Virus record (IMG/VR): IMGVR_UViG_2619619131_000008
Span: 1 to 12,422 of that record
Reading direction: 5' to 3' (one strand)
Source of the DNA: a virus
Taxonomy: Duplodnaviria > Heunggongvirae > Uroviricota > Caudoviricetes
Length of the DNA stretch: 12,422 nt
The notes beneath the pieces are model-generated. The model was given only the letters and a program-made list of their open reading frames with translations, was not told where the DNA came from and ran no database searches. Below are positions 1-12,422 of the stretch, one piece after another. The stretch's first letter is position 1, and every line of letters begins with the position of its first letter. Both the position numbers and the translations under genes were made by a program.

Positions 1-312
1 AGGCTCCGGAAGACGGTTGTTGCGCACGTATTCGGTGAACGCACTATGGCGACGCTGGGGCGTCTTATGAGCCTGCTGTCACCCTTTGACGTGGTGATAT
101 GGATGACGGATGGCTGGCCGCTGTATGAATCCCGCCTGAAGGGAAAGCTGCACGTAATCAGCAAGCGATATACGCAGCGAATTGAGCGGCATAACCTGAA
201 TCTGAGGCAGCACCTGGCACGGCTGGGACGGAAGTCGCTGTCGTTCTCAAAATCGGTGGAGCTGCATGACAAAGTCATCGGGCATTATCTGAACATAAAA
301 CACTATCAATAA
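1..312 (+). CDS. insB: IS1 transposase InsB, C-terminal part (5'-truncated by window edge)
   Basis: Frame 1 is open from position 1 to TAA at 310-312. Translation [48 protein letters not shown]… matches recalled InsB. Confidence 0.85.
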
Positions 313-327
313 GTTGGAGTCATTACC
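1..327 (+). mobile_element. IS1 insertion sequence, 3' portion (5' part lies outside the window); right terminal inverted repeat ends at about 327
   Basis: Window starts inside a sequence I recognise as IS1 (…CTCCGGAAGACGGTTGTTGCGCACGTATTCGGTGAACGCACTATGGCGACG…). ORF translates to the InsB C-terminus (…HYLNIKHYQ). Characteristic IS1 end …CACTATCAATAAGTTGGAGTCATTACC at 301-327. Confidence 0.9.
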
Positions 328-392
328 TCCAAATCTGAATAATTAAGTTCAGCACTGTAAATAAAATTTAATCCTTAACTGGAGGTATATCT

Positions 393-605
393 ATGTCAAA
401 TACACAGAAAATTATTAACACTGAAAAATATAACGAGTGGGTGAAAAAATTCTCTGAACAGATTTTTAAAATTACTGGCGACGAGAATGTGGCAAAAAAT
501 GAATTAGAACCGTGGACACCTGAAGGAAACGCACCAAATTATTGCTGGTGGGAGGTTGATCCGGTTGATGCTGCAAATGAAGCCATGAGTTACCACAACG
601 ATTAA
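393..605 (+). CDS. hypothetical 70-aa protein (AT-rich moron gene)
   Basis: ATG at 393 preceded by GGAGG (381-385) at good spacing. Visibly AT-rich sequence immediately after the IS1 end. No recognisable family. Confidence 0.5.
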   Translation: MSNTQKIINTEKYNEWVKKFSEQIFKITGDENVAKNELEPWTPEGNAPNYCWWEVDPVDAANEAMSYHND

Positions 606-615
606 TGTCGGGAGG

Positions 616-631
616 CCGCCCGAAAGGGCGG
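616..631 (+). other. intergenic GNRA-tetraloop stem-loop (CCGCCC-GAAA-GGGCGG), not followed by a U-tract
   Basis: Perfect 6-bp GC-rich stem with GAAA loop between the stop at 605 and the ATG at 638. No downstream T-run, so it is not a canonical intrinsic terminator. Confidence 0.5.
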
Positions 632-637
632 TAAGAA

Positions 638-856
638 ATGACTACATTATTCAGAAAAGAATATCCGCAAAAAAGTAGAGCGACAGAATTTTTGTTTCTC
701 ATTCTGTTTATCGTATTGATGATACCGATATCCCCTCTAATTTTTGTCTGGGCAATCGGGAAAATAATTGAGCCAGTTACTGAATTGTATACCGACGTTG
801 TATGGGCGTCGTTCAACACACTGCACAATAAAATTAATCCGTATAAGGAAAACTGA
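638..856 (+). CDS. hypothetical small membrane protein (72 aa, one predicted TM helix: FLFLILFIVLMIPISPLIFVWAIG)
   Basis: ORF in the same AT-rich island with a long hydrophobic segment. Weak RBS. Stop TGA 854-856 is directly followed by the next start at 858. Confidence 0.45.
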   Translation: MTTLFRKEYPQKSRATEFLFLILFIVLMIPISPLIFVWAIGKIIEPVTELYTDVVWASFNTLHNKINPYKEN

Positions 857-857
857 T

Positions 858-1121
858 ATGGCAACTTTGACAAAAAAAGAACGGGCATGGTTGAACGAAT
901 TACAGGAAGTTCTTGATCGCTGTCCATCACCGAAAAAAATTGGCTTTTACACCATTGGCGATAAAAGCATTTACCTGTATGACCTACGTCGCATGGATGA
1001 AATCATGGAGGCTCTTGATAATCGTTCGTCGATGGATTGGTGTGTTGCTGTTCATGATATGAATGCAGGGTTTGATGAAAAGATTTTGTTCCCCTCATCA
1101 GTTGAAAGCACTGCGGGTTAA
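858..1121 (+). CDS. hypothetical phage protein (87 aa)
   Basis: ATG at 858 preceded by AAGGAAAA. The longer ORF-track form (768..1121) would overlap the upstream gene and was not used. No family recognised. Confidence 0.55.
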   Translation: MATLTKKERAWLNELQEVLDRCPSPKKIGFYTIGDKSIYLYDLRRMDEIMEALDNRSSMDWCVAVHDMNAGFDEKILFPSSVESTAG

Positions 1122-1131
1122 GGAGTAACAC

Positions 1132-1299
1132 ATGACCACTATTACCAAAGAACGTATTGAATTGTTCATTAAAAACCCGCTTGAAAACGGGCTTACCCGT
1201 GGTGAACAAATGGAACTGGCACGGATTGCGCTGGCATCGCTGGAAGCAGAGCCGGTTGTGTTCTGGTTTGAAAAATATCAAGAAGGGGCTACGGCATGA
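1132..1299 (+). CDS. hypothetical small protein (55 aa), paralogous to the next gene
   Basis: Absent from the ORF track (<60 aa). ATG at 1132 with AGGAG at 1121-1125. Translation [55 protein letters not shown]. Stop overlaps the next start (ATGA at 1296-1299). Confidence 0.5.
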
Positions 1300-1541
1300 C
1301 GACTTTTACCAGAGAGCAGTTAATAGCTCACGCAGAGGAGACTATTGAAGCACAGAGACTGTGCATACCGGGCACAATCGACCATGACATCATCCGCACA
1401 TATAAGATGGATATTGCTGTTCTGGAAATCGCACTGGTATCGCTGGCAGCAGAGCCAGCCGGTAAATTGCATGAATACAAACCAGTGGGATATCAGCGTC
1501 TGGTCGATGAGTTAACCATGCTGGTAAAGCAGTTAACCTAG
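1296..1541 (+). CDS. hypothetical small protein (81 aa), paralogous to the previous gene
   Basis: Starts MTTFTREQ… (compare MTTITKER…) and contains [10 protein letters not shown] (compare [10 protein letters not shown]). Translationally coupled to the upstream ORF. Confidence 0.55.
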
Positions 1542-1636
1542 CAACTGAGGAAAGCGAAGCCAGACTGCAAATTACCGGATAAGGCGATGAGTTATCTGGA
1601 GCGGAACGGACTGATAAGCGTGGAGGATATTTTACG

Positions 1637-1720
1637 ATGACCTGGCCTGAAGCATTAACAACGGTAGGAATTGCGATGGCGGTGGCGCTGGTGGTGTATT
1701 CGATTTGCCGCTGGGGATAA
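1637..1720 (+). CDS. possible 27-aa hydrophobic peptide (MTWPEALTTVGIAMAVALVVYSICRWG), coupled to a 17-aa upstream ORF (1587-1640)
   Basis: GGAGG at 1622-1626 precedes the ATG at 1637. ATGA overlap with the tiny upstream ORF. Single hydrophobic helix. Below ORF-track size; speculative. Confidence 0.25.
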   Translation: MTWPEALTTVGIAMAVALVVYSICRWG

Positions 1721-1889
1721 AAACGGTTTGCGGGAAAAGGAGAGTTAAGTAGAATTGCAGCGGGTGCTTGAGGCTATCTGTCTCAGGCATGAACACCAAA
1801 AGGCAGATAGAGAAAAGCCCCAGTTAACATTACGCGTCCGGCAAGACGCTTAACATTAATCTGAGGCCATATCTATGCTCTACACACGT

Positions 1890-1918
1890 AGGTTAGCCTC
1901 TTACGTGCCGAAAGGCAA
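1890..1918 (-). promoter_or_regulatory. candidate Sok-like antisense promoter (minus strand: TTGCCT - 17 bp - TAACCT) directing transcription across the upstream in-frame ATG of the hok ORF
   Basis: Hexamers read from the reverse complement. Position and orientation match the canonical hok/sok layout. Not verified. Confidence 0.3.
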
Positions 1919-1931
1919 GGAGAAGCAGGCT

Positions 1932-2087
1932 ATGAAGCAGCAAAAGGCGATGCTAATCGCCCTGATCGTCATCTGTTTAACCGTCATTGTGACGGCACTG
2001 GTAACGAGGAAAGACCTCTGCGAGGTACGAATCCGAACCGGCCAGACGGAGGTCGCTGTCTTCACAGCTTACGAACCTGAGGAGTAA
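1932..2087 (+). CDS. hokD: Hok/Gef family type I toxin (51 aa), HokD/RelF-like
   Basis: Translation MKQQKAMLIALIVICLTVIVTALVTRKDLCEVRIRTGQTEVAVFTAYEPEE matches the Hok family signature (TM helix, conserved Cys, C-terminal periplasmic tail). AAGGAG at 1916-1921. An in-frame upstream ATG at 1875 could give a 70-aa form. Confidence 0.85.
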   Translation: MKQQKAMLIALIVICLTVIVTALVTRKDLCEVRIRTGQTEVAVFTAYEPEE

Positions 2088-2155
2088 GAGACCTGGCGGG
2101 GGAGAAATCCCTCGCCACCTCTGATGTGTCAGGCATCCTCAACGCACCCGCACTT

Positions 2156-2182
2156 AACCCGCTTCGGCGGGTTTTGTTTTTT
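2156..2182 (+). terminator. rho-independent terminator downstream of hok (AACCCGC-TTCG-GCGGGTT followed by a T-run)
   Basis: GC stem-loop followed by TTTGTTTTTT, seen directly. Confidence 0.6.
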
Positions 2183-2254
2183 CCTGGCATTCTGGTTTAC
2201 AATTCGCACGTCAGCCTGAACACCTGACACCTGCTGCGCCAGCAGAGAAAACAG

Positions 2255-2527
2255 ATGGCGCACAAAACCAAATTTCACAATTCTGATACCGACCTTGCCA
2301 TCCGGCATGAGCGGCGTTCACACGCATTTAAAACCGACTGGTACCAACACCCACCATGTACTGAAGAACAGGCCGAATGGCTGATTCATTCTTACCGCAG
2401 GCGCGGGTTCGAGGTTAAGAAAGCTCTCAGCCTCGATTATCGTCACTGGATAATCTCCGTCAGGCTTCCTTACTCTGAACGCCCACCGCGTCCGTCCCGC
2501 ACATTCCAGCAACGCATCTGGAGGTAA
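2255..2527 (+). CDS. hypothetical protein (90 aa) in the position occupied by rem in the Qin prophage
   Basis: ORF between hokD and the ydfU-like gene. Weak RBS. Synteny only; the K-12 Rem sequence is not recalled well enough to confirm. Confidence 0.45.
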   Translation: MAHKTKFHNSDTDLAIRHERRSHAFKTDWYQHPPCTEEQAEWLIHSYRRRGFEVKKALSLDYRHWIISVRLPYSERPPRPSRTFQQRIWR

Positions 2528-2528
2528 C

Positions 2529-3578
2529 GTGCGGGTATTACTTCGACCTGTTCTGGTACCGGAACTCGGGCTGGTGATCGTTAAGCCGGGCCGTGAATCC
2601 ATGCCGGTATTCCACAATACCCGGGTACTGGTGGAGCCGGAACCGAAAAGCATGCGTAATCTGTCGTCCGGGGTCGTTCCTGCCGTTCGCCAGCCGCTGG
2701 CGGAGGATAAATCATTACTGCCATTTTTCAGCGACGAACGAGTGATTCGTGCTGCTGGTGGCGCTGGCGCATTGTCTGACTGGTTACTGCGCCATGTTAA
2801 ATCCTGCCAGTGGCCACACGGCGATTATCACCACAGTGAAACCGTCATTCACCGTTATGGTACCGGCGCAATGGTGTTGTGCTGGCACTGCGACAACCAG
2901 TTGCGTGACCAGACCTCCGAATCACTTGAGCAACTTGCTCACCAAAACCTGTCAGCATGGATGATTGACGTCATTCGTCACGCAATGAATGGCACACAGG
3001 AGCGTGAATTATCGCTGGCTGAATTATCCTGGTGGGCGGCCTGCAATCAGGTGGTGGATGCACTACCTGAGGCAGTAGCGCGTCGTTCGCTGGGATTACC
3101 AGCGGAAAAAATCCGCTCCGTATACCGTGAGAGTGACATCGTACCGGGAGAACAGACAGCCATCAGCATACTGAAGCAGCGCACAAAAAATATTGCGCTG
3201 CCACTTCACGTCCACCAGCAACAAAATCCACCACAGGAAAAGACGGTGGTCAGCATTGCCGTTGATCCGGAGTCTCCGGAATCCTTCATGAAACGACCTA
3301 AACGTCGCCGCTGGGTTAACGAGAAATACACGCGCTGGGTGAAGACACAGCCGTGTGCGTGTTGTGGTAAGCCAGCCGACGATCCCCATCACCTGATTGG
3401 TCATGGTCAGGGCGGAATGGGGACAAAATCTCACGATATTTTCACGCTACCGCTGTGTCGGGAGCATCACAACGAGCTTCATGCGGATCCGCTGGCGTTC
3501 GAAGAAAAGCATGGCTCTCAGGTTGATTTAATTTTTCGTTTTCTTGATCACGCCTTTGCAACCGGCGTGCTCGGGTAA
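2529..3578 (+). CDS. ydfU: DUF968/YdfU-family lambdoid prophage protein with C-terminal HNH-like zinc-binding motif (CACCGKPADDPHH … CREHHNELH)
   Basis: 349-aa ORF from GTG at 2529 (GGAGG at 2520-2524). Strong resemblance to recalled Qin YdfU (MRVLLRPVLVPELGL…). Synteny hokD-rem-ydfU-Q. Confidence 0.8.
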   Translation: MRVLLRPVLVPELGLVIVKPGRESMPVFHNTRVLVEPEPKSMRNLSSGVVPAVRQPLAEDKSLLPFFSDERVIRAAGGAGALSDWLLRHVKSCQWPHGDYHHSETVIHRYGTGAMVLCWHCDNQLRDQTSESLEQLAHQNLSAWMIDVIRHAMNGTQERELSLAELSWWAACNQVVDALPEAVARRSLGLPAEKIRSVYRESDIVPGEQTAISILKQRTKNIALPLHVHQQQNPPQEKTVVSIAVDPESPESFMKRPKRRRWVNEKYTRWVKTQPCACCGKPADDPHHLIGHGQGGMGTKSHDIFTLPLCREHHNELHADPLAFEEKHGSQVDLIFRFLDHAFATGVLG

Positions 3579-3590
3579 AAGAGGTTACTG

Positions 3591-3965
3591 ATGCGTATAG
3601 AGTTTGTTTTGCCTTACCCGCCGACGGTGAACACCTACTGGCGACGTCGTGGCAGCACATATTTTGTATCAAAAGCCGGTGAGCGTTATCGCCGGGCTGT
3701 GGCGCTTATTGTTCGCCAGCAGCGGCTGAAATTAAGCCTGTCCGGAAGGCTGGCGATAAAGATTATTGCCGCGCCACCGGATAAGCGCCGCCGTGACCTG
3801 GACAATATTCTGAAAGCGCCGCTGGATGCGCTGACGCATGCGGGGTTGCTAATGGACGATGAGCAGTTTGATGAAATCAATATCGTTCGTGCTCAGCCAG
3901 TATCTGGTGGACGTCTGGGGGTGAAGATTTACCCCATAATGCTTGCAGGGCAGGTCAAAAAATGA
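3591..3965 (+). CDS. rusA: RusA-family Holliday junction resolvase
   Basis: 124 aa. RusA-like motifs (YPPTVNTYW near the N-terminus, RRRDLDN acidic catalytic motif). AAGAGG RBS. Typical nin-region position just upstream of Q. Confidence 0.85.
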   Translation: MRIEFVLPYPPTVNTYWRRRGSTYFVSKAGERYRRAVALIVRQQRLKLSLSGRLAIKIIAAPPDKRRRDLDNILKAPLDALTHAGLLMDDEQFDEINIVRAQPVSGGRLGVKIYPIMLAGQVKK

Positions 3966-4783
3966 AACTGGAAGATTTACCGAAATACTACTCCCCAAAA
4001 TCCCCCGGCCTGACTGATGCATCGGCCTCAACGTCGAAAGATGCGCTGAGTATCACTGATGTGATGGCCGCGCAGGGCATGACACAGAATCGGGCTGAGA
4101 TGGGGTTTTCTGCGTTCCTTGGTAAAATGGGCATTAGTATGAATGACAGAGAGCGGGCAACAGAATTGCTGACAGAATATGCACTCAGTCGGTGTGATCG
4201 CGTGGCGGCGTTAAGAAAACTCCCGGCAGAAATAAAACCGGTAGTGATGCGCATTATGGCTTCGTACGCTTTTGAGGATTATGCCCGTAGCGCAGCGAGT
4301 AAAAAACAGTGCCCCTGCTGTCACGGAAAAAAATTTATTGAAAGCGAGGTTTTTACAAACAAGATCCAGTATCCGGATGGTAAGCCGCCGGTATGGGCAA
4401 AGTGTACGAAAGGTGTGTATCCGTCTTACTGGGAAGAATGGAAAAAAGTCAGGGAGGTGGTAAAAGTTGCCTGTCCGGAGTGTGGCGGAAAGGGTGAGGT
4501 TTCCACCGCCTGTAAGGATTGCCGTGGGCGTGGTGTCGCCATTCATCGTGAAGAGTCGGTAAAACGTGGTATGCCTGTTATCAGAGACTGCCAGCGTTGT
4601 GGTGGTCGTGGCTGTGAAAGACTACCATCAACGGAGGCATTTAATGCCATATGCAAAGTGACGAGTGCTATCACGCTTGATACGTGGAAAAAATCAGTGA
4701 AACGCTTTTACGATACGTTGGTGGTTCGGTTTGACATTGAAGAGGCATGGGCGGAGCGGCAGTTAAAGAGGGTAACGCGATAG
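3962..4783 (+). CDS. putative late-gene antiterminator (Q-like, QuuQ/YdfT-like) with four DnaJ-type CxxCxGxG zinc-finger repeats
   Basis: 273-aa ORF coupled to rusA (ATGA overlap). Sits immediately upstream of a lambda-like pR' promoter and tR' terminator. Contains CPCCHGKK, CPECGGKG, CKDCRGRG, CQRCGGRG. Assignment rests on synteny and recalled Qin organisation. Confidence 0.6.
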   Translation: MKLEDLPKYYSPKSPGLTDASASTSKDALSITDVMAAQGMTQNRAEMGFSAFLGKMGISMNDRERATELLTEYALSRCDRVAALRKLPAEIKPVVMRIMASYAFEDYARSAASKKQCPCCHGKKFIESEVFTNKIQYPDGKPPVWAKCTKGVYPSYWEEWKKVREVVKVACPECGGKGEVSTACKDCRGRGVAIHREESVKRGMPVIRDCQRCGGRGCERLPSTEAFNAICKVTSAITLDTWKKSVKRFYDTLVVRFDIEEAWAERQLKRVTR

Positions 4784-4788
4784 TGTTG

Positions 4789-4828
4789 TTGATTTTTCCC
4801 GAATCTGTGGTAAATTCGCTCTAACGAT
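4789..4828 (+). promoter_or_regulatory. pR'-like late promoter (-35 TTGATT, extended -10 TGgTAAATT) with downstream AACGAT pause-like element (putative Q engagement region)
   Basis: The -10 hexamer TAAATT and the downstream …AACGATGGG… closely resemble the lambda pR' region as recalled. Located 6 bp after the Q-like stop. Confidence 0.6.
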
Positions 4829-4865
4829 GGGCGTTTTATGCCTGACGTTAGAAGATTTTTTACAC

Positions 4866-4887
4866 CCCGCCGCCTGGCGGGTTTTTT
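4866..4887 (+). terminator. tR'-like intrinsic terminator (CCCGCC-GCCT-GGCGGG + TTTTTT)
   Basis: Perfect 6-bp GC stem followed by a T6 run about 45-65 nt downstream of the pR' start region; would yield a short 6S-like leader RNA. Confidence 0.7.
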
Positions 4888-5009
4888 ATGACTGAAATCG
4901 CGTCAGTACAGTAAACGCGCTGGTGGCGGTGAATACCTGTCTTTCAGCTTGCTGGCTTTTTCGACAAGAGTTATTGGTGTGTCACGTTAACCGGAAAAGG
5001 GAAAAAGAC

Positions 5010-5207
5010 ATGCTAAAACAGCAGGATATGACAGAAACCGCCAGAGTAGTGTTTAATGAATTAAGCGTTACCGAACCGGCGACAGTCGGGGAGATTGCAC
5101 AGAATACTTACCTTTCACGCGAACGCTGCCAGTTAATACTGACCCAGCTGGTTATGGCGGGTCTGGCAGACTATCAGTGCGGTTGTTACAGACGCCTTCA
5201 GTCCTGA
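5010..5207 (+). CDS. hypothetical 65-aa protein, possibly a small helix-turn-helix DNA-binding protein
   Basis: ATG at 5010 preceded by AAAAGGGAAAAAG. Segment TVGEIAQNTYLSRERCQLILTQLVMAGL resembles an HTH. Start chosen over the longer 4923 form. Confidence 0.45.
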   Translation: MLKQQDMTETARVVFNELSVTEPATVGEIAQNTYLSRERCQLILTQLVMAGLADYQCGCYRRLQS

Positions 5208-5220
5208 AGGCTTTTTATTT
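5193..5220 (+). terminator. rho-independent terminator (GCCTTCAG…CTGAAGGC + TTTTTATTT) overlapping the stop of the 65-aa gene
   Basis: Near-perfect 8-bp inverted repeat followed by a T-rich run. Confidence 0.5.
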
Positions 5221-5274
5221 GTGGTGAATGGGCGGCTGGTGGGGGGCGACACCTGTCAGTCCTTTGCTTATGTG

Positions 5275-5305
5275 TTGATGATAATTTACCTTTTGGGGCT
5301 ATAAT
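5275..5305 (+). promoter_or_regulatory. candidate sigma70 promoter for the AraC-family gene (-35 TTGATG, -10 TATAAT)
   Basis: Consensus TATAAT at 5300-5305. The -35 spacing is slightly long (about 19 bp), so uncertain. Confidence 0.35.
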
Positions 5306-5340
5306 TGAGCTAACCAATTGCTAATGAAAGTAAAATTATA

Positions 5341-6054
5341 ATGGCTGTTGTCTGTTCAGTTATCATGGTTTGCTCCCCAATTAATATTTTTCTTGAAAAG
5401 GATACGTTGTCACTTAAGCCAGGCTCAGTTGTTCTGGCCACCAAATGCATCAGGGAGCTTTTCCTTATGCATTATGGCAAAGTTAAAATTGTCGATATAA
5501 GCGAATCCGTCGTAAGTCAATATCTGGAAAGTCAGCATAAGCTGACGAGGACTCGTCTGACTGACATTCCGCTTTACCTGTTGCTGGAACCCAACAATCC
5601 TGCGTTGGCTGCGGCTTTAATTACCAGCCAGGGATTTTCCGGAGAGGCCACGGATATGTTTCTTATGATGGCCTGCCTGTCTCTGTTTGAAACAGATGAA
5701 CGGATGTCATTGTTTTTAAGTGGATGTTTATCCAGCATAAGTGCCAAAGTCAGGGCGATAATTCAGACAGATATATCAGCAAGCTGGACGCTTTGTGCGA
5801 TTGCTCTACAGTTGCATATGAGTGAGAGTTTGTTAAAGACAAAACTGAAAAATGAAGGGGGCATGTTCAGTCGCTTGTTGCTGGAAGAGCGGATGCGTGT
5901 TGCTGTAAATATGTTATGTTCCCGGCATGGATATGGACAGGCTATAGCAGAAAAATGCGGTTATTCAAGCAGGTCCTACTTTATTTCTGTATTTCACCGC
6001 TATTATGGCTTCCCGCCAGACAGATATGTATCCAGGCAAGGGCTTGATTATTGA
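5341..6054 (+). CDS. AraC/XylS-family transcriptional regulator (prophage-encoded, AppY/Psr/PatE-like class)
   Basis: 237 aa. C-terminal double-HTH signature of the AraC family (…AIAEKCGYSSRSYFISVFHRYYGFPPDRY…). N-terminus MAVVCSV… resembles prophage AppY-type regulators as recalled. Visibly AT-rich gene and upstream region. Alternative downstream starts are possible. Confidence 0.8.
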   Translation: MAVVCSVIMVCSPINIFLEKDTLSLKPGSVVLATKCIRELFLMHYGKVKIVDISESVVSQYLESQHKLTRTRLTDIPLYLLLEPNNPALAAALITSQGFSGEATDMFLMMACLSLFETDERMSLFLSGCLSSISAKVRAIIQTDISASWTLCAIALQLHMSESLLKTKLKNEGGMFSRLLLEERMRVAVNMLCSRHGYGQAIAEKCGYSSRSYFISVFHRYYGFPPDRYVSRQGLDY

Positions 6055-6082
6055 TTTTCATCTGATTATTATTTTTTGGCTC

Positions 6083-6158
6083 GGCCCTTTAGCTCAGTGG
6101 TGAGAGCGAGCGACTCATAATCGCCAGGTCGCTGGTTCAAATCCAGCAAGGGCCACCA
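6083..6158 (+). tRNA. ileZ: tRNA-Ile2 (anticodon CAU, lysidine-type; ileZ/ileX-like), with encoded CCA
   Basis: Cloverleaf readable by eye: GGCCCTT acceptor, D arm GCTCAGTGGTGAGAGC, anticodon loop CTCATAA, T arm GGTTCAAATCC, 3' CCA. Very similar to recalled E. coli ileX. Anticodon alone would also fit Met. Confidence 0.85.
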
Positions 6159-6165
6159 TCACATA

Positions 6166-6239
6166 CCGCCATTAGCTCATCAGGAAAGAGCGCCAGCCTT
6201 CGAAGCTGGTTGCGCGGAGTTCGGATCCCCGAAGGCGGT
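6166..6239 (+). tRNA. argN: tRNA-Arg-like (anticodon read as UCG; argN-like), with non-canonical stem pairs
   Basis: Acceptor CCGCCAT/AAGGCGG (one A-A mismatch), D arm GCTC…GAGC, anticodon stem-loop CCAGC-CTTCGAA-GCTGG, T arm CGGAG-TTCGGAT-CCCCG (one A-C mismatch). 3' end is TCA rather than CCA. Confidence 0.55.
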
Positions 6240-6255
6240 TCATTATCTGTATCCT

Positions 6256-6332
6256 GCGTTGTTAGCTCAGCCGGACAGAGCAATTGCCTTCTAAGCAATC
6301 GGTCACTGGTTCGAATCCAGTACAACGCGCCA
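6256..6332 (+). tRNA. argO: tRNA-Arg (anticodon UCU; argO/argU-like), with encoded CCA
   Basis: Acceptor GCGTTGT/ACAACGC, D arm GCTCAGCCGGACAGAGC, anticodon loop CTTCTAA, T arm CTGGTTCGAATCCAG, discriminator G + CCA. Confidence 0.85.
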
Positions 6333-6346
6333 GACTTATTTTTCCC

Positions 6347-6370
6347 GGCTCGCTTTTGCGGGCCTTTTTT
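6347..6370 (+). terminator. rho-independent terminator after the tRNA cluster (GGCTCGC-TTTT-GCGGGCC + TTTTTT)
   Basis: 7-bp stem with one G-U pair followed by a T6 run. Confidence 0.55.
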
Positions 6371-6502
6371 GTATCCGCGCCACGCCCGGCGCATATCAAC
6401 CACAGAGCCTTTCGGGGGTGAGCTTACGGAGTGGTCAGTGTGACTTTCTCTGTGGGCAGATCGCTCCCGGGCGTTGGCTCACCCACCCAAAGGAACGTCA
6501 CG

Positions 6503-6934
6503 ATGTTTGGTATTTTTGGTAAAAAAGCCCGCCGAGCGGCAGTGGAAATTAAAAAGTTTGAGAAACGTGATCTGGCACAGGCGGTTATTAATGCTGCCTA
6601 TCTGGTGGCCTATGCAGATGGTGAATGTGAGGCTTCAGAGAAAGCGAAGATCGAGCAGGTCTTGCGTAACCAGCCTGCGTTGTCCGCGTTTACGTCAGAA
6701 ATTAATGCGATTAGCGCAACCATTATCGGTCAGCTGGATACGAACTTTAAAATTGGTCGTCGAGCGGCGTTACGTGAGATCGAGGATGTGAAACACGATA
6801 CGCGTGAAGCGGAAGACGTGCTGGATGTGGCGGTGGCCATTGCCGAAGCAGACGGCGAAATAGAGCCGGAAGAGCGCAAGGTGCTGGAAGAGATTGCCGG
6901 TGTTCTGGGCCTTCGTCTGGAGAATCATCTGTGA
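6503..6934 (+). CDS. TerB-like domain protein (tellurite-resistance TerB / DjlA-N-like fold), 143 aa
   Basis: ATG at 6503 with AAGGAA 7 nt upstream. Two TerB-type acidic motifs (AYADGECEASEKAKIEQVL and AEADGEIEPEERKVLEEIAGVLGL). The earlier GTG at 6431 lacks an RBS. Confidence 0.65.
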   Translation: MFGIFGKKARRAAVEIKKFEKRDLAQAVINAAYLVAYADGECEASEKAKIEQVLRNQPALSAFTSEINAISATIIGQLDTNFKIGRRAALREIEDVKHDTREAEDVLDVAVAIAEADGEIEPEERKVLEEIAGVLGLRLENHL

Positions 6935-6942
6935 CGGTAAAA

Positions 6943-7104
6943 ATGCGTCTGGCTGTGGTTGCGCTCCTGCTGTTTCTGGTAGTGATGGTGGTGATGGTGG
7001 ACTTCAGCAGCCGGATAATGTCAGTGCTGGCTGACGGTGTGCTGGTGGCGGGTGTGGTGGTTGTTGCTTTCCCGTTGCTGAAAAAGAAAGCATCAGGCGA
7101 TTAG
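6943..7104 (+). CDS. possible small hydrophobic membrane peptide (53 aa: MRLAVVALLLFLVVMVVMVDFSSRIMSVLADGVLVAGVVVVAFPLLKKKASGD)
   Basis: Absent from the ORF track (<60 aa). Starts 9 nt after the TerB-like stop. Two hydrophobic segments and a KKK tail. Weak RBS; contains a 9-bp tandem repeat GTGATGGTG x2. Confidence 0.35.
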   Translation: MRLAVVALLLFLVVMVVMVDFSSRIMSVLADGVLVAGVVVVAFPLLKKKASGD

Positions 7105-7344
7105 CAGGGTATCAGTTACCCGTTGAAATTTTTAAATACCTCACAATTCAGGCGGTTGACTGTTGTCTGGTTTGCGGGGAGTTTGTTAAAAGAAACTGGC
7201 ATGGTGAATCCCCCTGTGCGGAGGGGCAATCAGCAACTGGTGTTTTGTCACCGACCCTTATCCTTTCTGTGCGGGTTCAGGTGCTGATACTGAACTCACC
7301 GGGAGGCACCCGGCACCATGCAAAATTGTCTACACTACCACTGT

Positions 7345-7373
7345 AAAAAGCCCCTCTCCGGAGGGGCTTTTCT
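7345..7373 (+). terminator. strong intrinsic terminator (AGCCCCTC-TCCG-GAGGGGCT + TTTCT), A-run upstream makes it potentially bidirectional
   Basis: Perfect 8-bp GC-rich stem with tetraloop, flanked by AAAAA and TTTT. Confidence 0.65.
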
Positions 7374-7378
7374 ATGGG

Positions 7379-7407
7379 CAAAAAAAAGCCCGCAGTGAGT
7401 GGCGGGC
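7379..7407 (-). terminator. intrinsic terminator oriented for the minus strand (GCCCGC…GCGGGC preceded on + by A8, i.e. followed by U8 on minus-strand RNA)
   Basis: 6-bp GC stem with 8-nt loop. The poly-A on the + strand corresponds to poly-U on a leftward transcript. Confidence 0.45.
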
Positions 7408-7471
7408 GGGGCGCATGAATATACATCAGGTATTTTTATTATCGTGTTCTGATTTTTACCATCTGTGATAA

Positions 7472-7502
7472 GGCTGCGCAACTGCGCGGCCTTTTTCGTT
7501 TT
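7472..7502 (+). terminator. intrinsic terminator (GGCTGCGC-AACT-GCGCGGCC + TTTTTCGTTTT)
   Basis: 8-bp stem with one G-U pair followed by a T-rich run, about 90 bp upstream of the nanS-p-like start. Confidence 0.55.
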
Positions 7503-7590
7503 GCGGGCTGCGGTTCTCCTCTTTTGATTCTCCGTGTAGCCGGACCGTGGCCCGCAACTGTTGAGGAAAATCCCGGAAAGGGGAGGAATA

Positions 7591-9534
7591 ATGGCATTTA
7601 AACACTATGACGTGGTCAGGGCGGCGTCGCCGTCAGACCTTGCGGAGCGACTGACACAAAAACTGAAGGAAGGCTGGCAGCCGTTTGGCAGTCCTGTGGC
7701 TATCACGCCTTATACACTGATGCAGGCCATTGCCGCAGAGGGTGATGTGACCACGCCTGTGGTTGTGCCCGACACAGGGGCTGGTGGCTCTCCGGGAGTG
7801 GCTACCACTGAACCGGAGTATTACTACGTTATTCCCCTGGCCGGGCAGTCGAACGGTATGGCCTATGGTGAGGGGCTTCCTCTGCCGGAGACCTATGATC
7901 GCCCTGACTCCCGTATTAAGCAGCTGGCCCGTCGCAGCACTGTGACGCCGGGTGGTGATACCTGTGCATACAATGACGTTATTCCGGCAGACCACTGTCT
8001 GCATGATGTTCAGGACATGAGCGCACTTAACCATCCTCATGCAGACCTGAGTAAGGGCCAGTACGGGACTGTCGGTCAGGGGCTGCATATTGCCAAAAAA
8101 CTTCTGCCTTATATCCCGCAGAATGCCGGGATTCTTCTGGTGCCCTGTTGCCGTGGCGGGTCTGGTTTAACCGTGGGTAATGACGGCACGTTCAGCGAAA
8201 CGTCTGGCGCATCGGCAAATTCAGCCCGCTGGGGAGTGGGTAAACCGCTGTATCAGGATTTTCTCTTCCGTACAAAAGCGGCGCTGTCGAAGAACCCGAA
8301 AAACAGGCTTCTGGCCGTGGTATGGATGCAGGGGGAAAATGATCTTGCGGACGGCAGTCAGCAGCACAGCGGCCTGTTTACCACTATGGTGCAGCAGTTC
8401 AGGGCTGATATGGCTGCATATTCTGCACAGTGTGTTGGCGGAAGTGCTGGCTCGGTGCCGTGGATTTGTGGTGACACCACGTATTACTGGAAGAATCTTA
8501 ACGCCGATAAATATGAGGCGGTATATGGCGGTTACAAGGGCAGGGAAGCACAGAATATTTTCTTTGTACCGTTCCTGACGGATGAGAATGGACAGAGCAC
8601 GCCAACGAATGCTCCGGCGGAAGACCCGGATATTGTGGCTGTCGGGTATTACGGTGCAGCATCCCGAACCCAGGGCAGTTTTGTTTCGACACAGCGTGAC
8701 AGCCATTTCAGCTCATGGGCACGCAGGGGCGTCATTTCAGACCGTCTGGCCTCAGCTATTATGCTCCATGCAGGGCGCACGGCTGAATTGATGCGCGGGC
8801 AGACCGTGACACCACCGGATGAGAAGCCGTCACCTGATACACCATCAAAACCGTCCACGCCACCCGCAGACACCACGACGATGAGTACGCTATTTGCTTA
8901 CCGGGCATCTGAGTCTGAAGGACGGTTGACACCACAGGGTTGGGCTGCTGGAGGTGGCAAGGCTCAAATCGTGGATGATGCCGGAGCCAGCGGGGGTAAG
9001 GCAATGAAACTGACCAAGGAAACAGGAAGAGCCCCCTGGTACCTTGAGCATGATGCTGGTAATGGTGCGGACCTGCTGGGTAAAGGTGGTCTTGTCAGTT
9101 GTCGTTTTAAACTCGATGGCGCGCTTACGGCTAATCAGTACGCACTGGCGCTGTACTGGCCGGTTTCTTCATTGCCTCAGGGTGTCACACTGGAAGGTAA
9201 TGCCGGTAACAATCTGCTGGCGTCGTTTTACGTACAGAGCGATGCCACAGACCTCAACGTGATGTACCACAAGGGTAACGCTGACCAGAACACGAAGCTG
9301 GGGTCATTCGGCGCATTTAATAACGAATGGCATACGCTGGGCTTCCGTTTTGCCGGTAATAACAGTATTCAGGTGACGCCGGTGATTGATGGTCAGGATG
9401 GTGCACCGTTCATGCTGTCGCAGTCTCCGGTAGGTTCTTTTGCGGCAGACAAATTACGTGTAACGGATATCACAAAAGCGGCGACGTATACGGTGCTGAT
9501 TGAAAGTATAACAGTGGAAGTGAATAACCCGTAA
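7591..9534 (+). CDS. nanS: NanS-p-like prophage 9-O-acetyl sialic acid esterase (N-terminal DUF1737, SGNH/SASA esterase core with GQSN motif, C-terminal beta-rich domain)
   Basis: 647 aa from ATG 7591 (AAGGGGAGGA RBS). N-terminus MAFKHYDVVRAASPSDLAERL… is DUF1737-like. IPLAGQSNGMAYGEG carries the SGNH catalytic Ser block. Pro/Ser/Thr-rich linker (TPPDEKPSPDTPSKPSTPP). Same position as yjhS/nanS-p downstream of the toxin site in Stx phages. Confidence 0.8.
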   Translation: MAFKHYDVVRAASPSDLAERLTQKLKEGWQPFGSPVAITPYTLMQAIAAEGDVTTPVVVPDTGAGGSPGVATTEPEYYYVIPLAGQSNGMAYGEGLPLPETYDRPDSRIKQLARRSTVTPGGDTCAYNDVIPADHCLHDVQDMSALNHPHADLSKGQYGTVGQGLHIAKKLLPYIPQNAGILLVPCCRGGSGLTVGNDGTFSETSGASANSARWGVGKPLYQDFLFRTKAALSKNPKNRLLAVVWMQGENDLADGSQQHSGLFTTMVQQFRADMAAYSAQCVGGSAGSVPWICGDTTYYWKNLNADKYEAVYGGYKGREAQNIFFVPFLTDENGQSTPTNAPAEDPDIVAVGYYGAASRTQGSFVSTQRDSHFSSWARRGVISDRLASAIMLHAGRTAELMRGQTVTPPDEKPSPDTPSKPSTPPADTTTMSTLFAYRASESEGRLTPQGWAAGGGKAQIVDDAGASGGKAMKLTKETGRAPWYLEHDAGNGADLLGKGGLVSCRFKLDGALTANQYALALYWPVSSLPQGVTLEGNAGNNLLASFYVQSDATDLNVMYHKGNADQNTKLGSFGAFNNEWHTLGFRFAGNNSIQVTPVIDGQDGAPFMLSQSPVGSFAADKLRVTDITKAATYTVLIESITVEVNNP

Positions 9535-9682
9535 GCAGGAAAAAAAGACCGCCGTGGCAGGGAAAACAAGGAGCCAGAACCGGCGGCAGAAGTCGCTACA
9601 TCCTTAGCAAAAATATGCTGAGCAAAAAATGCAGGAGTTTTTTACTGGCAGGCATTGACCATGTCAATAATGGAGATGAATA

Positions 9683-9865
9683 ATGACATTTTTACAGCTG
9701 ATTATGTTGTATTTCTGTACAGCAGTTTGTGTGCTGTATCTTCTTTCTGGTGGGTACAGAGTCGTGAGAGATTTCTGGCGCAGGCAGATTGACAAAAGGG
9801 CCGCTGAGAAAATCAGTGCCAGTCAGTCAGCCGGAACAAAACCCGAAGAGCCTCTCATTCCGTAG
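9683..9865 (+). CDS. hypothetical small membrane protein (60 aa)
   Basis: ATG with GGAG upstream. N-terminal hydrophobic helix (LQLIMLYFCTAVCVLYLLSGG). Confidence 0.45.
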   Translation: MTFLQLIMLYFCTAVCVLYLLSGGYRVVRDFWRRQIDKRAAEKISASQSAGTKPEEPLIP

Positions 9866-9902
9866 CAACTTTCTTAACAACACCTTTCAACGAGAAAATA
9901 CC

Positions 9903-10172
9903 ATGTCAGAAATAAAATCGCTGGTCACTGCTGAAGCAGTGAAGGAAGTCCTGCGCTCTGAAGAAGTCAGAAGCGCACTGAAACAGCAACTTCGGCAGAA
10001 CCTTGAGGCGCGTCTTGATGCAGAAGTGGATGCCATTCTGGATGAACTGCTGGGCGCACCGACTGTTCCGGAGCCGGAAGGCATTGCGGATGACAGTGCT
10101 GTTTCAGATGGCGTCGGGTCTCAGCCTGATGGTAGCAGTGAGCCTCAGCCTGACGGCGAAATGATGATGTAA
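9903..10172 (+). CDS. hypothetical acidic protein (89 aa) with C-terminal low-complexity SQPDG/EPQPDG repeat
   Basis: ATG at 9903 chosen over the upstream in-frame ATG (9789), which would overlap the previous gene. Helical N-terminal part and acidic tail. Confidence 0.5.
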   Translation: MSEIKSLVTAEAVKEVLRSEEVRSALKQQLRQNLEARLDAEVDAILDELLGAPTVPEPEGIADDSAVSDGVGSQPDGSSEPQPDGEMMM

Positions 10173-10247
10173 CCATGCGCAGGGGCTGTCGGTGTGAGCT
10201 GATGCCCCTCTTGTTGTTGTGAGCTTCCGGATTGCGGGAGACGGGGT

Positions 10248-10463
10248 ATGTACCAGATGGAAAAAATCACAACAGGTGTGTCATACACCACGTCAGCGGT
10301 GGGGACGGGCTACTGGTTCCTGCAGCTGCTGGACAGGGTTTCCCCGTCTCAGTGGGCGGCAATAGGCGTACTGGGAAGTCTGCTGTTTGGGCTGCTGACA
10401 TATCTGACTAACCTGTATTTCAAAATCAGAGAGGACCGTCGTAAGGCGGCGCGGGGAGAGTAA
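10248..10463 (+). CDS. S: class II holin, phage 21 S-type pinholin (71 aa) with possible dual-start motif (Met1/Met4)
   Basis: [71 protein letters not shown] is near-identical in the C-terminal two thirds to recalled S21. Two TMDs and a charged C-tail. Confidence 0.85.
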
Positions 10464-10467
10464 AGCG

Positions 10468-10812
10468 ATGAAGAAAAAATACGAACTGGTTGTTAAAGGG
10501 ATAAATAATTACCCGAATAAGATTACTGTTACTGTGGCACTGGAAATTGGTGGGTATCCGTCACTGTTGTTGCCAGATGTGGCGATTAGTCTTGACCGTA
10601 CTGAAGATGCCACGCTGGAGTTTTACGAAGCTGAGGCGAAAAAGCAGGCGAAGCAGTTTTTCATGGATGTTGCTGCCGGGTTATGTGAAGGGGATGGTCC
10701 GTTGCCGGAAAAGCGCCCCGTAATTTTAGAGGCGCAGGATGTGTTGATAACCTACAGAGGAAAACTACCGGGAATAATTACTGGTTCTCTGAAGACTCCA
10801 CCGCTGGCCTGA
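10468..10812 (+). CDS. hypothetical 114-aa protein inserted between pinholin and endolysin genes
   Basis: ATG at 10468 with GGAGAG RBS, 4 nt after the holin stop. No TM segment or family recognised. Confidence 0.55.
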   Translation: MKKKYELVVKGINNYPNKITVTVALEIGGYPSLLLPDVAISLDRTEDATLEFYEAEAKKQAKQFFMDVAAGLCEGDGPLPEKRPVILEAQDVLITYRGKLPGIITGSLKTPPLA

Positions 10813-10862
10813 AGACTTAACATATCCAGGGATTTGAAATCGATAAACCCTGATAAATATCC

Positions 10863-11396
10863 ATGAACACCAAAATCAAATACGGCCTGTCGGCTGCCGT
10901 TCTGGCGCTGATTGCCGCAGGTGCGCCTGCGCCTGAAATCCTCGACCAGTTTCTGGATGAAAAGGAAGGTAACCACACCACGGCATACCGTGATGGCGCG
11001 GGTATCTGGACCATCTGCCGCGGTGCCATCCTGGTGGATAGTAAACCTGTCGTCCCGGGCATGAAGTTGTCGAAGGAAAAATGCGACCAGGTCAACGCCA
11101 TTGAGCGTGATAAGGCGCTGGCATGGGTGGAGCGCAATATTAAAGTGCCGCTGACCGAACCCCAGAAAGCGGGTATCGCGTCATTTTGTCCCTATAACAT
11201 TGGCCCCGGTAAGTGTTTCCCGTCGACGTTTTACAGACGGATTAATGCTGGTGACCGCAGGGGAGCATGCGAAGCGATTCGCTGGTGGATTAAGGACGGT
11301 GGCAGAGACTGCCGTATCCGCTCAAATAATTGCTACGGTCAGGTATCCCGGCGAGACCAGGAAAGTGCGCTGGCGTGCTGGGACATCGACAGATAA
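10863..11396 (+). CDS. R: SAR endolysin (T4-lysozyme-like muramidase, R21 type) with N-terminal signal-anchor-release domain
   Basis: 177 aa. N-terminal weakly hydrophobic Gly/Ala-rich segment (GLSAAVLALIAAGAPAP). Catalytic E-x8-D-x5-T pattern (E…NHTTAYRD…GIWT). Expected partner of a pinholin. Confidence 0.8.
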   Translation: MNTKIKYGLSAAVLALIAAGAPAPEILDQFLDEKEGNHTTAYRDGAGIWTICRGAILVDSKPVVPGMKLSKEKCDQVNAIERDKALAWVERNIKVPLTEPQKAGIASFCPYNIGPGKCFPSTFYRRINAGDRRGACEAIRWWIKDGGRDCRIRSNNCYGQVSRRDQESALACWDIDR

Positions 11397-11486
11397 GCAG
11401 AATATTTTGCTGAAAAATAAGGCATGAGCACGCGGACGGATAACACGAAATCCTGCGAACTGGCGAAACGTAAGTGAATAAAAGTA

Positions 11487-11526
11487 AAAACCCCGTTTGT
11501 TGGCACCAAGCGGGGTTTTGTGTTTC
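11487..11526 (+). terminator. intrinsic terminator downstream of the endolysin gene (CCCCGTTTG…CAAGCGGGG + TTTTGTGTTT), A-run upstream
   Basis: 9-bp stem with one G-U pair and 7-nt loop followed by a T-rich run. Confidence 0.5.
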
Positions 11527-11552
11527 TGACCTTGAGTAAGGCAAGGGAGAAC

Positions 11553-11735
11553 ATGGCGAAGTATAAACGAATTCTGTTGAGGTTGACCATGAAAAACGGC
11601 CTTGAACTGAAAGCGCCTGTAACTGATGACATCAGCAGAGCACTGGCTTTTGCCATTAAGTGGGTGGCGGTCGGTGTTGCTGTGTCCCCGATGCTGTATG
11701 GGCTGGCAAAACTGGTCATTGCGTTGAAATCGTGA
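11553..11735 (+). CDS. hypothetical small protein (60 aa) with C-terminal hydrophobic helix
   Basis: ATG at 11553 with AAGGGAGA upstream (short spacing). Hydrophobic segment [22 protein letters not shown]. Function unknown. Confidence 0.35.
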
Positions 11736-11749
11736 AGGGAGGATTAAGC

Positions 11750-11881
11750 ATGTCAGACAAACTCATAACGCTGGCGAAGATCCTCTGTGTAATTGTCGGC
11801 ATTTCATTTTCACTAATGCTGGTTGCTCTTTTTCTTTCCATGGCCTGGATGATGTTGTCTTCGTCGGGGCTGCTGGGGTGA
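11750..11881 (+). CDS. hypothetical small membrane peptide (43 aa)
   Basis: Strong RBS GAAGGGAGG before ATG 11750. One TM helix ([26 protein letters not shown]). Stop overlaps the Rz start. Confidence 0.35.
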
Positions 11882-12351
11882 ACATAAACCGAATGCTTTC
11901 CGCGTTTACCGTTATTCTGCTGGTGGTCTGTGGTGCGCTGTGGCTGGCAACAGACCATTACCGTGATAACGCCATCACCTACAAAGCGCAGCGCGATAAA
12001 AAAGCCAGAGAGCTGGAGCTGGCAAACGCAACCATTACTGACATGCAGCAGCGCCAGCGTGATGTTGCTGCGCTTGATGCCAGATACTCAAGGGAATTAG
12101 CCGATGCGAGAGCTGAAAATGAAACTCTGCGTGCTGATGTTGCCGCTGGTCGTAAGCGCCTGCGGATCAACGCCACCTGCTCCGGTACCGTGCGTGAAGC
12201 CACCGGCACCTCCGGAATGGATAATGCAACCGGCCCCCGACTGGCAGACACCGCTGAACGGGATTATTTCACCCTCAGAGAGCGGTTGATGACAATGCAG
12301 AAGCAACTGGAAGGGGCGCAGGAATATATCCGCACTCAGTGTATTAACTAG
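11878..12351 (+). CDS. Rz: Rz i-spanin (inner-membrane spanin subunit)
   Basis: Strong similarity to recalled lambda Rz (…[15 protein letters not shown]…[17 protein letters not shown]…TMQKQLEG…). N-terminal TM helix. Start may be GTG 11878 or ATG 11893. Confidence 0.85.
12104..12289 (+). CDS. Rz1: Rz1 o-spanin lipoprotein, embedded in the +1 frame inside Rz
   Basis: [61 protein letters not shown]: lipobox VVSAC, Pro-rich, very similar to recalled lambda Rz1. Confidence 0.85.
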
Positions 12352-12374
12352 TATTTTTGTTATCCGGAGAATGC

Positions 12375-12422
12375 ATGAAGAAATTACTGGTAACCGTAAA
12401 GCCTTTTCAGGGAACAATTCCG
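12375..12422 (+). CDS. start of an ORF running off the window (MKKLLVTVKPFQGTIP…), unidentified
   Basis: GGAGA RBS before ATG 12375. Only 16 codons visible. Confidence 0.2.
   Translation, partial: MKKLLVTVKPFQGTIP

Follow-up and report, generated by a model that had tools for sequence, protein, structure and literature searches.

A highly probable psrB allele in an exchangeable moron slot of an Escherichia coli lambdoid prophage

Prophage-encoded AraC regulators, including PsrA, PsrB, PatE, and AppY, tie phages into the acid-resistance and virulence circuits of their hosts and affect survival during gastric passage and colonization by pathogenic Escherichia coli. In reviews, PsrB (prophage-encoded secretion regulator B) is described as a direct binder of two promoters, that of gadE and, between -132 and -45, that of hdeA (PMC10877973; PMC8565820; PMC10057817). 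It raises AR2/HdeAB acid resistance and, once induced, helps cells to survive acid and to pass through the mouse stomach (PMC10877973). Both PsrA and PsrB are reported to elevate GadE/YhiF and indirectly repress the type III secretion system (T3SS; PMC10877973; PMC8565820; PMC10057817). PatE is reported to act on the same hdeA promoter segment as PsrB (PMC10877973), and the closest paralogs of the Psr proteins (PatE, GadW, YdeO, AppY, and GadX) all regulate host acid-stress genes (PMC10057817). A review of Tree et al. 2011 further associates Psr prophages with T3SS effector loci and Pch regulators (PMC10877973). Here, we analyzed a 12,422-nucleotide stretch of viral DNA (IMG/VR record IMGVR_UViG_2619619131_000008, positions 1 to 12,422; hereafter, the window), which corresponds to the part of an E. 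coli lambdoid prophage that carries its late-regulatory and lysis genes. The gene at 5341-6054 is very probably an intact allele of psrB, encoding an AraC/XylS activator that is carried as a moron in the lambdoid late region and acts by the Psr mechanism. psrB is an already known gene (Z2104 in EDL933, ECs_2191 in Sakai), and the copy in the window adds no new biology, although it departs in small ways from the textbook description. The features on which this assignment turns are as follows:

~5278-6078, plus strand: psr moron cassette, comprising promoter and psrB (delimited by homology breakpoints against Stx2_EH2201 and phiP27)
5278-5305, plus strand: candidate sigma-70 promoter of psrB (ATGATA, 16 nucleotides, TATAAT; 10/12 consensus positions, with a perfect TATAAT at 5300-5305)
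5341-6054, plus strand: psrB allele for a 237-amino-acid AraC/XylS regulator (open reading frame, Pfam, and sequence identity)
5740-6039, plus strand: DNA-binding domain with two helix-turn-helix motifs (residues 134-233; phmmer match to the GadX domain 3mkl, E 6.2e-19)
6083-6332, plus strand: ileZ(CAT)-argN(TCG)-argO(TCT) tRNA cluster, directly 3' of psrB with no terminator between them

The window gene shares 99.0% nucleotide identity with ECs_2191 of Sakai prophage Sp11. Once ECs_2191 is extended to an upstream ATG, the two proteins are 98.3% identical across all 237 residues and differ by four substitutions (A103V, C152G, H196Y, and I202V). The product of ECs_1087 (prophage Sp4; reported as Z1789) and the window protein share 90.3% identity, and 17 of their 23 differences fall in the N-terminal domain; ecs1087 in Sp4 was named psrA by the family-defining Tree laboratory in a 2026 paper (PMC13502914). 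The Sakai genome holds exactly two psr copies, ECs_1087 and ECs_2191, which are 90.7% identical to each other, and PsrB (z2104, O-island 57 or OI-57) has been described as the closest PsrA homolog at 90% identity (PMC10877973; PMC8565820). Z2104 was tied to ECs_2191 through the markers of OI-57: this island carries NleG2-3, NleG6-2, and NleG5-2 (z2149-z2151) and encodes PsrB z2104 (PMC8565820), and Sp11 carries nleG5-2, nleG6-2, nleG2-3, and pchB. Because Sp11 has the OI-57 markers, the other Sakai copy is psrA, and 90.7% matches the published 90%, we take ECs_2191 to be PsrB, and the window gene is therefore best assigned as a psrB allele. A discrepancy concerns psrA, which reviews place (as z1789) in OI-50/CP-933N (PMC10877973), at odds with ecs1087 in Sp4 (PMC13502914). 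A psrA in CP-933N/Sp6 (OI-50) was rejected, as the complete Sakai and re-sequenced EDL933 assemblies both lack an AraC gene there and psrA is located in Sp4. Public contigs already include 252 that encode exactly the window protein, annotated with a generic name.

The genomic setting agrees with that of a prophage-encoded Psr. DUF968, RusA, and the Q antiterminator are encoded upstream of the gene, and the tRNAs, TerB, NanS-p, holin, lysozyme, and Rz lie downstream. The closest complete genome, E. coli S1-CAM-01-A, matches the window at 99.5% identity over 4784-6082 and at 96.7% over 2155-10719, and its annotation agrees with ours.

The original prediction proposed a regulator of the AppY/Psr/PatE type and named these proteins and GadX as comparisons, a proposal that the protein search bore out. 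Beyond the identities to PsrA and PsrB given above, the window protein is 29% identical to AppY, 37% to PatE, and 42% to GadX (DNA-binding domain), with GadW (35%) and YdeO (31%) as further K-12 relatives. GadW, GadX, YdeO, and AppY (chromosomal, DLP12) belong to the same subfamily, have the same two-domain architecture, and all feed the gadE acid-resistance circuit. Unlike chromosomal GadW, GadX, and YdeO, the window protein is mobile and confined to lambdoid prophages. The best full-length NCBIfam match is YdeO, followed by GadX, but the scores fall far under the equivalog cutoffs (108.6 bits versus 348 for the YdeO model NF007407; 87.4 bits versus 500 for the GadX model NF007432). These low scores mark the window protein as a paralog, not an ortholog, of YdeO and GadX and as an ortholog only of Psr. 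PatE (Z0321) can be equated with ECs_0287 on the basis of the OI-8/Sp1 position of the latter. It aligns with the window protein end to end, has a common M-x-x-x-C-S-V-I N-terminal motif, and, like Psr, is AraC-like, is carried on a prophage, and activates gadE and hdeA. ECs_0287 sits in a different, degraded prophage (Sp1/OI-8) by tail-fiber and invertase genes, not in a slot between Q and tRNAs.

Profile searches recovered the AraC-family helix-turn-helix that the original prediction had expected. Two stretches match Pfam HTH_AraC (45.5 bits, cutoff 26.6), and residues 155-230 match HTH_18 (39.8 bits, cutoff 33.6). The protein thus has the C-terminal domain of ~100 amino acids with two helix-turn-helix motifs by which AraC/XylS membership is judged. 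With Foldseek, the closest solved structure is the GadX domain 3mkl (target-normalized template modeling [TM] score 0.87, root-mean-square deviation 1.9, 42% identity). In the full-length model, the DNA-binding half has predicted local distance difference test (pLDDT) values mostly of 82-94, with one block at 62. Over its full length, the model matches the folds of Rns, CsvR, and ToxT, all virulence regulators; because pLDDT is only 42-75 in the N-terminal domain, these matches carry no inference as to a ligand pocket.

The reading frame deserves comment, as the Sakai annotation starts both ECs_2191 and ECs_1087 at an internal ATG, giving 195 amino acids each (7127-7714 in the retrieved Sp11 stretch and 38803-39390 in the retrieved Sp4 stretch). 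The longer frame begins M-A-V-V-C-S-V-I, which lines up with the starts of PatE, GadW, YdeO, and AppY and is kept in all homologs down to 38% identity. Because of this conservation, the 237-amino-acid start is the correct one, and the older annotated models are short by a conserved 42-residue N-terminus. Among psr alleles, pairwise ratios of nonsynonymous to synonymous substitution rates (dN/dS) range from 0.22 to 0.43 (0.30-0.57 for the N-terminal domain and a lower 0.13-0.41 for the DNA-binding domain), and the Psr protein is therefore under purifying selection.

The regulator and its leader had also been described as more AT-rich than the flanking phage genes. The bias is real: psrB has a GC content of 43.7% and the 5208-5340 spacer 40.6%, compared with 50.5% for the whole window, 49.6% for Q, 55.2% for the tRNAs, and 54.6% for nanS-p. 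It is, however, modest (~7 points), and the region is not the most AT-rich part of the window, since the lowest 300-nucleotide value in the region under study is 38.3% (5251-5550), whereas positions 301-600 reach 36.0%. In codon usage, psrB employs AUA for 5 of 15 Ile and AGA or AGG for 6 of 13 Arg residues, such that AUA/AGR account for 11 of 237 codons (4.6 rare codons per 100, versus 1.1-2.1 for DUF968, TerB, and nanS-p). The adjacent tRNAs read the rare codons enriched in psrB.

Comparison with related phages delimits the psr cassette. Homology between the window and Stx2_EH2201 or phiP27 runs from the tR' terminator through a small upstream open reading frame (ORF), stops at 5243 (Stx2_EH2201) or 5277 (phiP27), and resumes in both at 6079, four bases 5' of ileZ. 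In Stx2 phages and phiP27, the intervening slot contains a 1059-bp DNA methylase; the counterparts of window positions 5244-6078 in the methylase-bearing phages are 3379-4587 and 3416-4587 of the retrieved stretches. In a multiple alignment, psr- and methylase-bearing sequences part precisely at the candidate psrB promoter, at its -35 hexamer, and this promoter is absent from the methylase cassettes. Because homology breaks at the -35 hexamer and resumes before ileZ, psr and its promoter form a discrete promoter-plus-gene cassette, a moron exchangeable with the methylase moron in a single late-region slot between the small-ORF terminator and the tRNA cluster. The slot can also be empty: in Sp12, Q leads directly to the tRNAs, with no psr. 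Sp6 and EDL933 CP-933N, which have the Q type of the window, carry a clean deletion equivalent to window positions 5005-6552. This deletion covers the small ORF, psr, the tRNAs, and the 5' end of TerB (Sp6 14172-14390, retrieved stretch).

The order Q, small ORF, psr, and ileZ-argN-argO is the same in the window, Sp11, Sp4, and phiSTEC1575. Sp11 has the slot, upstream promoter region, and 237-amino-acid frame of the window, but lacks the middle tRNA, argN, and encodes a Q of 184 amino acids. The 273-amino-acid Q of the window prophage is like that of Sp6/CP-933N, and the window prophage thus pairs a CP-933N-type Q with a PsrB-type allele. Sp4, which encodes PsrA, has the same cassette, promoter, and flanks as the window. 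In phiSTEC1575-Stx2k, the psr cassette lies directly 5' of the tRNAs and stx2k. A distant psr-like gene (68% nucleotide identity, 241 amino acids) in another lambdoid prophage (4001-4726 of the retrieved stretch) is found 3' of ileZ-arg tRNAs, where stx would be, by a methylase remnant. The psr family uses more than one late-region moron slot.

Psr-type genes are common and are not limited to O157 or to prophages bearing effector or pch genes. A sensitive nucleotide search with psrB gave matches in 1195 of the 5426 complete E. coli genomes; in 797, the match spanned at least 80% of the gene. Close psr copies occur at 1324 places in 726 of the 5426 genomes, and in 591 records the psrB ORF is unbroken and shares at least 99% identity. 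Copies are also present in strains of O104:H4, a lineage lacking the enterocyte effacement locus (LEE); therefore, in many hosts, only the acid-resistance arm of Psr function can matter.

Transcription of the gene can be considered in light of the following elements:

4789-4816, plus strand: candidate late promoter PR' (TTGATT, 16 nucleotides, TAAATT, with TG two bases 5' of the -10), just past the Q stop codon
4866-4888, plus strand: tR'-like intrinsic terminator (hairpin 4866-4881 with 6 G-C pairs, then TTTTTT)
5010-5207, plus strand: 65-amino-acid conserved phage ORF, phrog_331 (PHROG 2.1e-37; RefSeq "TrmB family transcriptional regulator")
5194-5221, plus strand: intrinsic terminator over the small-ORF stop codon (hairpin 5194-5211, GCCTTCAGTCCTGAAGGC plus TTTTTATTTG)
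6347-6372, plus strand: intrinsic terminator following the tRNAs, with no other between it and the psrB promoter (hairpin 6347-6364, GGCTCGCTTTTGCGGGCC plus TTTTTTGTAT)

The region holds seven terminator-like sites, versus 2.2 +/- 1.7 in shuffled sequences, and the 5194-5221 terminator is kept in psr-bearing and methylase-bearing phages. The predicted promoter of the regulator, with its TATAAT, is present inside the psr cassette. The promoter-leader region is near-identical 5' of Sakai psrA, Sakai psrB, and the phiSTEC1575 copy, the last of which differs in one -35 base. A 16-nucleotide imperfect inverted repeat (5278-5293 and 5327-5342, 81% complementary) brackets the promoter and start codon; the only one found in a repeat search around the psrB promoter, it could be a regulator site but is probably a chance occurrence in AT-rich DNA.

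A late promoter may lie at 4789-4816. Its score of 8/12 is under the scanner threshold; TTGATT-16-TAAATT, together with the CTCTAACGATGGG that follows it, looks like lambda PR' plus the initial transcribed region, and positions 4809-4831 align with lambda 44573-44595 (the PR' -10 and initial transcribed region) at 87.5% over 24 nucleotides (E 0.054). Because this lambda PR'-like sequence lies upstream, the tR' label that had been given to the terminator at 4866-4881 is reasonable. PR' followed by tR' ~50 nucleotides on predicts an RNA of ~66-69 nucleotides with a U-tail (4789-4890), and 4822-4890 folds (-23.3 kcal/mol, z -2.88) into a 5' hairpin joined by a single-stranded, A/U-rich linker to the hairpin of the terminator. 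In architecture, this predicted short RNA is like the Hfq-dependent phage small RNAs (sRNAs) StxS and HnrS. The PR'-tR' segment showed no nucleotide similarity to the Q-tRNA spacer of Sp12, where HnrS might lie.

From these elements and the published behavior of PsrB, a working model can be outlined. In the lysogen, psrB would be transcribed from its own cassette promoter at 5278-5305, as the sequence suggests. Upon prophage induction, Q-modified polymerase from PR' would read through all three terminators and also transcribe psrB. The C-terminal double helix-turn-helix domain would then bind the promoters of gadE and hdeA at AT-rich sites, with DNA binding and activation by the window protein predicted from characterized PsrB. 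GadE/YhiF-dependent acid resistance (AR2, HdeAB) would rise, and in LEE-positive hosts, higher GadE and YhiF would indirectly repress type III secretion.

Several observations weigh against parts of this assignment. Three of the four substitutions relative to Sakai PsrB fall in the DNA-binding half. The targets and phenotype of the window allele are most likely those of PsrB, as judged from orthology (98.3% identity) and the literature, with PsrB function itself taken from reviews (PMC10877973; PMC8565820; PMC10057817). Promoter-like sites in 4700-6500 number 3, versus 2.1 +/- 1.3 in shuffles, so that the psrB promoter motif alone is weak evidence, and the leader offers a weak Shine-Dalgarno sequence (GAAAG, 10 nucleotides 5' of the ATG). 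Deletion of psrB alone in enterohemorrhagic E. coli (EHEC) had little effect on secretion, with effects seen in trans or when the gene was induced (PMC10877973). Because of this result, psrB may be poorly expressed under laboratory conditions; deletion of psrA in Sakai, unlike that of psrB in EHEC, does affect secretion (PMC10877973). Finally, the effector association described for Psr prophages was not found: the window, which is part of the prophage, holds no pch or T3SS effector gene, and the T3SS arm may therefore be irrelevant in this host. Sp11 has pch and nleG genes, and none were seen beside the window psrB. In the closest genome, the post-lysis position that pchB occupies in Sp11 contains unrelated genes, with no pch or nleG adjoining.

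Some of these points lead to the strongest of the competing explanations, that psrB is silent cargo here, switched off by H-NS/Hha or lacking an active promoter, and redundant with chromosomal GadX, GadW, and YdeO, so that under normal conditions it would have no measurable regulatory effect. The AT bias of the gene and its leader, the promoter motif that is no better than chance, the weak ribosome-binding site, and the slight effect of the EHEC deletion (PMC10877973) are all in keeping with it. So is the finding that expression of HnrS, an sRNA that represses hha, raises psrA, a pattern consistent with Hha/H-NS silencing of a psr-type locus (PMC13502914). In Sakai, deletion of HnrS lowers psrA and gadE, and pulse expression raises both (PMC13502914); these data are compatible with Hha/H-NS control of psr loci without demonstrating that control. 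An unbroken ORF with at least 99% identity across 591 records, dN/dS values that indicate selection on the Psr protein, and the improved acid survival and mouse-stomach passage conferred by induced PsrB (PMC10877973) argue the other way, and we regard silence as a tentative and somewhat unlikely alternative. It concerns when psrB acts and not its identity as psrB.

It is also conceivable, though improbable, that the psr cassette drives transcription of ileZ-argN-argO in the lysogen and that, separately, the phrog_331 protein is a late-region regulator controlling the cassette next in line, be it psr or methylase. The cassette could transcribe the tRNAs because no terminator intervenes between 5278-5305 and 6347-6364 and because a second promoter-like site is found at 6044-6072. 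The latter site (TTGATT-17-TATTAT, 9/12) overlaps the last psrB codons and ends 11 nucleotides 5' of ileZ. As it lies within the psr cassette, any tRNA promoter activity there would be cassette-specific. If true, tRNA supply would be coupled to an acid-resistance and virulence regulator that is itself rich in AUA/AGR codons.

The small gene upstream of psrB bears on the remaining alternatives. As predicted, a 65-codon gene with its own terminator precedes the regulator, at 5010-5207, the terminator spanning its stop codon. Its ATG start at 5010 is that used by RefSeq for the closest genome, and 4923-5207 corresponds to a GTG-extended frame of 94 amino acids. Relative to phiSTEC1575, 13 of 17 nucleotide differences are at third codon positions (11 synonymous and 3 nonsynonymous codon changes); this pattern points to a genuine gene, because the changes are mostly synonymous. 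Its suggested helix-turn-helix character is plausible from the predicted fold but unproven. AlphaFold2 gives a confident model (pLDDT 84.8) made up of four helices, without strands that would form a wing, and its best Protein Data Bank (PDB) folds are all winged-helix domains, namely the IclR-type PcaR, Z-alpha, and the 71-amino-acid fimbrial regulator PefI (TMq ~0.65, probability 0.93-0.98, but E >= 0.4). Pfam TrmB (PF01978) scores 17.0 bits against a cutoff of 25.6 (E 0.0054), NCBIfam gave no match, and a PDB sequence search with a profile of the small ORF returned nothing below E 0.07. On the model, the protein is probably winged-helix-like. Identity with lambda orf-64, which occupies the same place after PR', was rejected, as the two have no similarity.

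The original prediction cast this small protein as a partner of the regulator, a view that did not hold. In its fuller form, the idea is that the 65-amino-acid ORF and the AraC gene are a two-gene regulatory module in which PsrB is joined by the small protein as its co-regulator, anti-activator, or partner. The two genes do adjoin on the same strand, 725 of 726 psr genomes have the small ORF upstream of psr, and the predicted fold is helix-turn-helix-like. The small ORF is, however, ~3x commoner than psr (4122 places in 2214 genomes versus 1324 places in 726 genomes) and is found in Salmonella, Klebsiella, Citrobacter, Buttiauxella, and Scandinavium, genera from which no psr homologs were recovered, these being from Escherichia and Shigella only. 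In phiP27, L23/phrog_331 is a ~95% identical protein in the same place after Q/tR' with the same terminator, and in this phage and the Stx2 phages, the small ORF is followed by the DNA methylase and stx2 instead of psr. The small ORF also ends in its own terminator ahead of the psr promoter, and the copy beside intact psrA in O157 is frameshifted. The adjacency is explained by the cassette slot, and we consider a two-gene module very unlikely. The 65-amino-acid ORF is an independent, conserved, and widespread phage gene, unrelated to psrB, that marks the left edge of the cassette slot. In O157:H7, the frameshift 5' of psrA falls near codon 49, alters the C-terminus, and is flagged by the Prokaryotic Genome Annotation Pipeline; the frameshifted copies are ECs_1086 (38343-38582) and 19667-19863 in the coordinates of the retrieved stretches.

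Least credible of all is that the regulator serves the phage itself by controlling its late genes, its tRNA cluster, or the choice between lysis and lysogeny: although psrB sits in the late operon directly 3' of Q/PR' with no terminator before the tRNAs, psr is dispensable (related phages have methylase or nothing in the slot, and Sp6 and CP-933N lack all of 5005-6552), the published PsrB targets are host acid-resistance promoters (PMC10877973), and the closest Psr paralogs (PatE, GadW, YdeO, AppY, and GadX) all regulate host acid-stress genes.

The psrB allele lies among the following additional features of the window:

46-312: IS1 transposase tail (Pfam DDE_Tnp_IS1 5.7e-48; C-terminal 88 residues)
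1762-2087: hok/sok type I toxin-antitoxin module (Rfam sok 117 bits at 1762-1937)
1875-2087: 70-amino-acid mok/hok ORF (Pfam HOK_GEF 2.9e-23)
2529-3578: DUF968 protein
3591-3965: RusA
3962-4783: Q antiterminator, 273 amino acids (Pfam Antiterm 2.6e-49)
6083-6158: tRNA with anticodon CAT, ileZ type (RefSeq: tRNA-Ile)
6165-6241: tRNA Arg TCG
6256-6332: tRNA Arg TCT
downstream of the tRNAs: TerB-family protein, then DUF3927
7170-7379: STnc100 sRNA, RF02076 (full-length Rfam match, 145.6 bits), past DUF3927 and before the NanS-p-type esterase gene
7561-9534: NanS-p-type sialate esterase
after NanS-p: DUF1378, DUF826, then holin, lysozyme, and Rz

An IS1 copy has inserted in the early or nin region of the prophage, and the start of the window falls inside that copy. 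To its right, positions 393-1541 have a GC content of 42.5% and contain four small ORFs without a Pfam match; the closest genome differs here, with an NgoMIV-type restriction-modification pair in this place.

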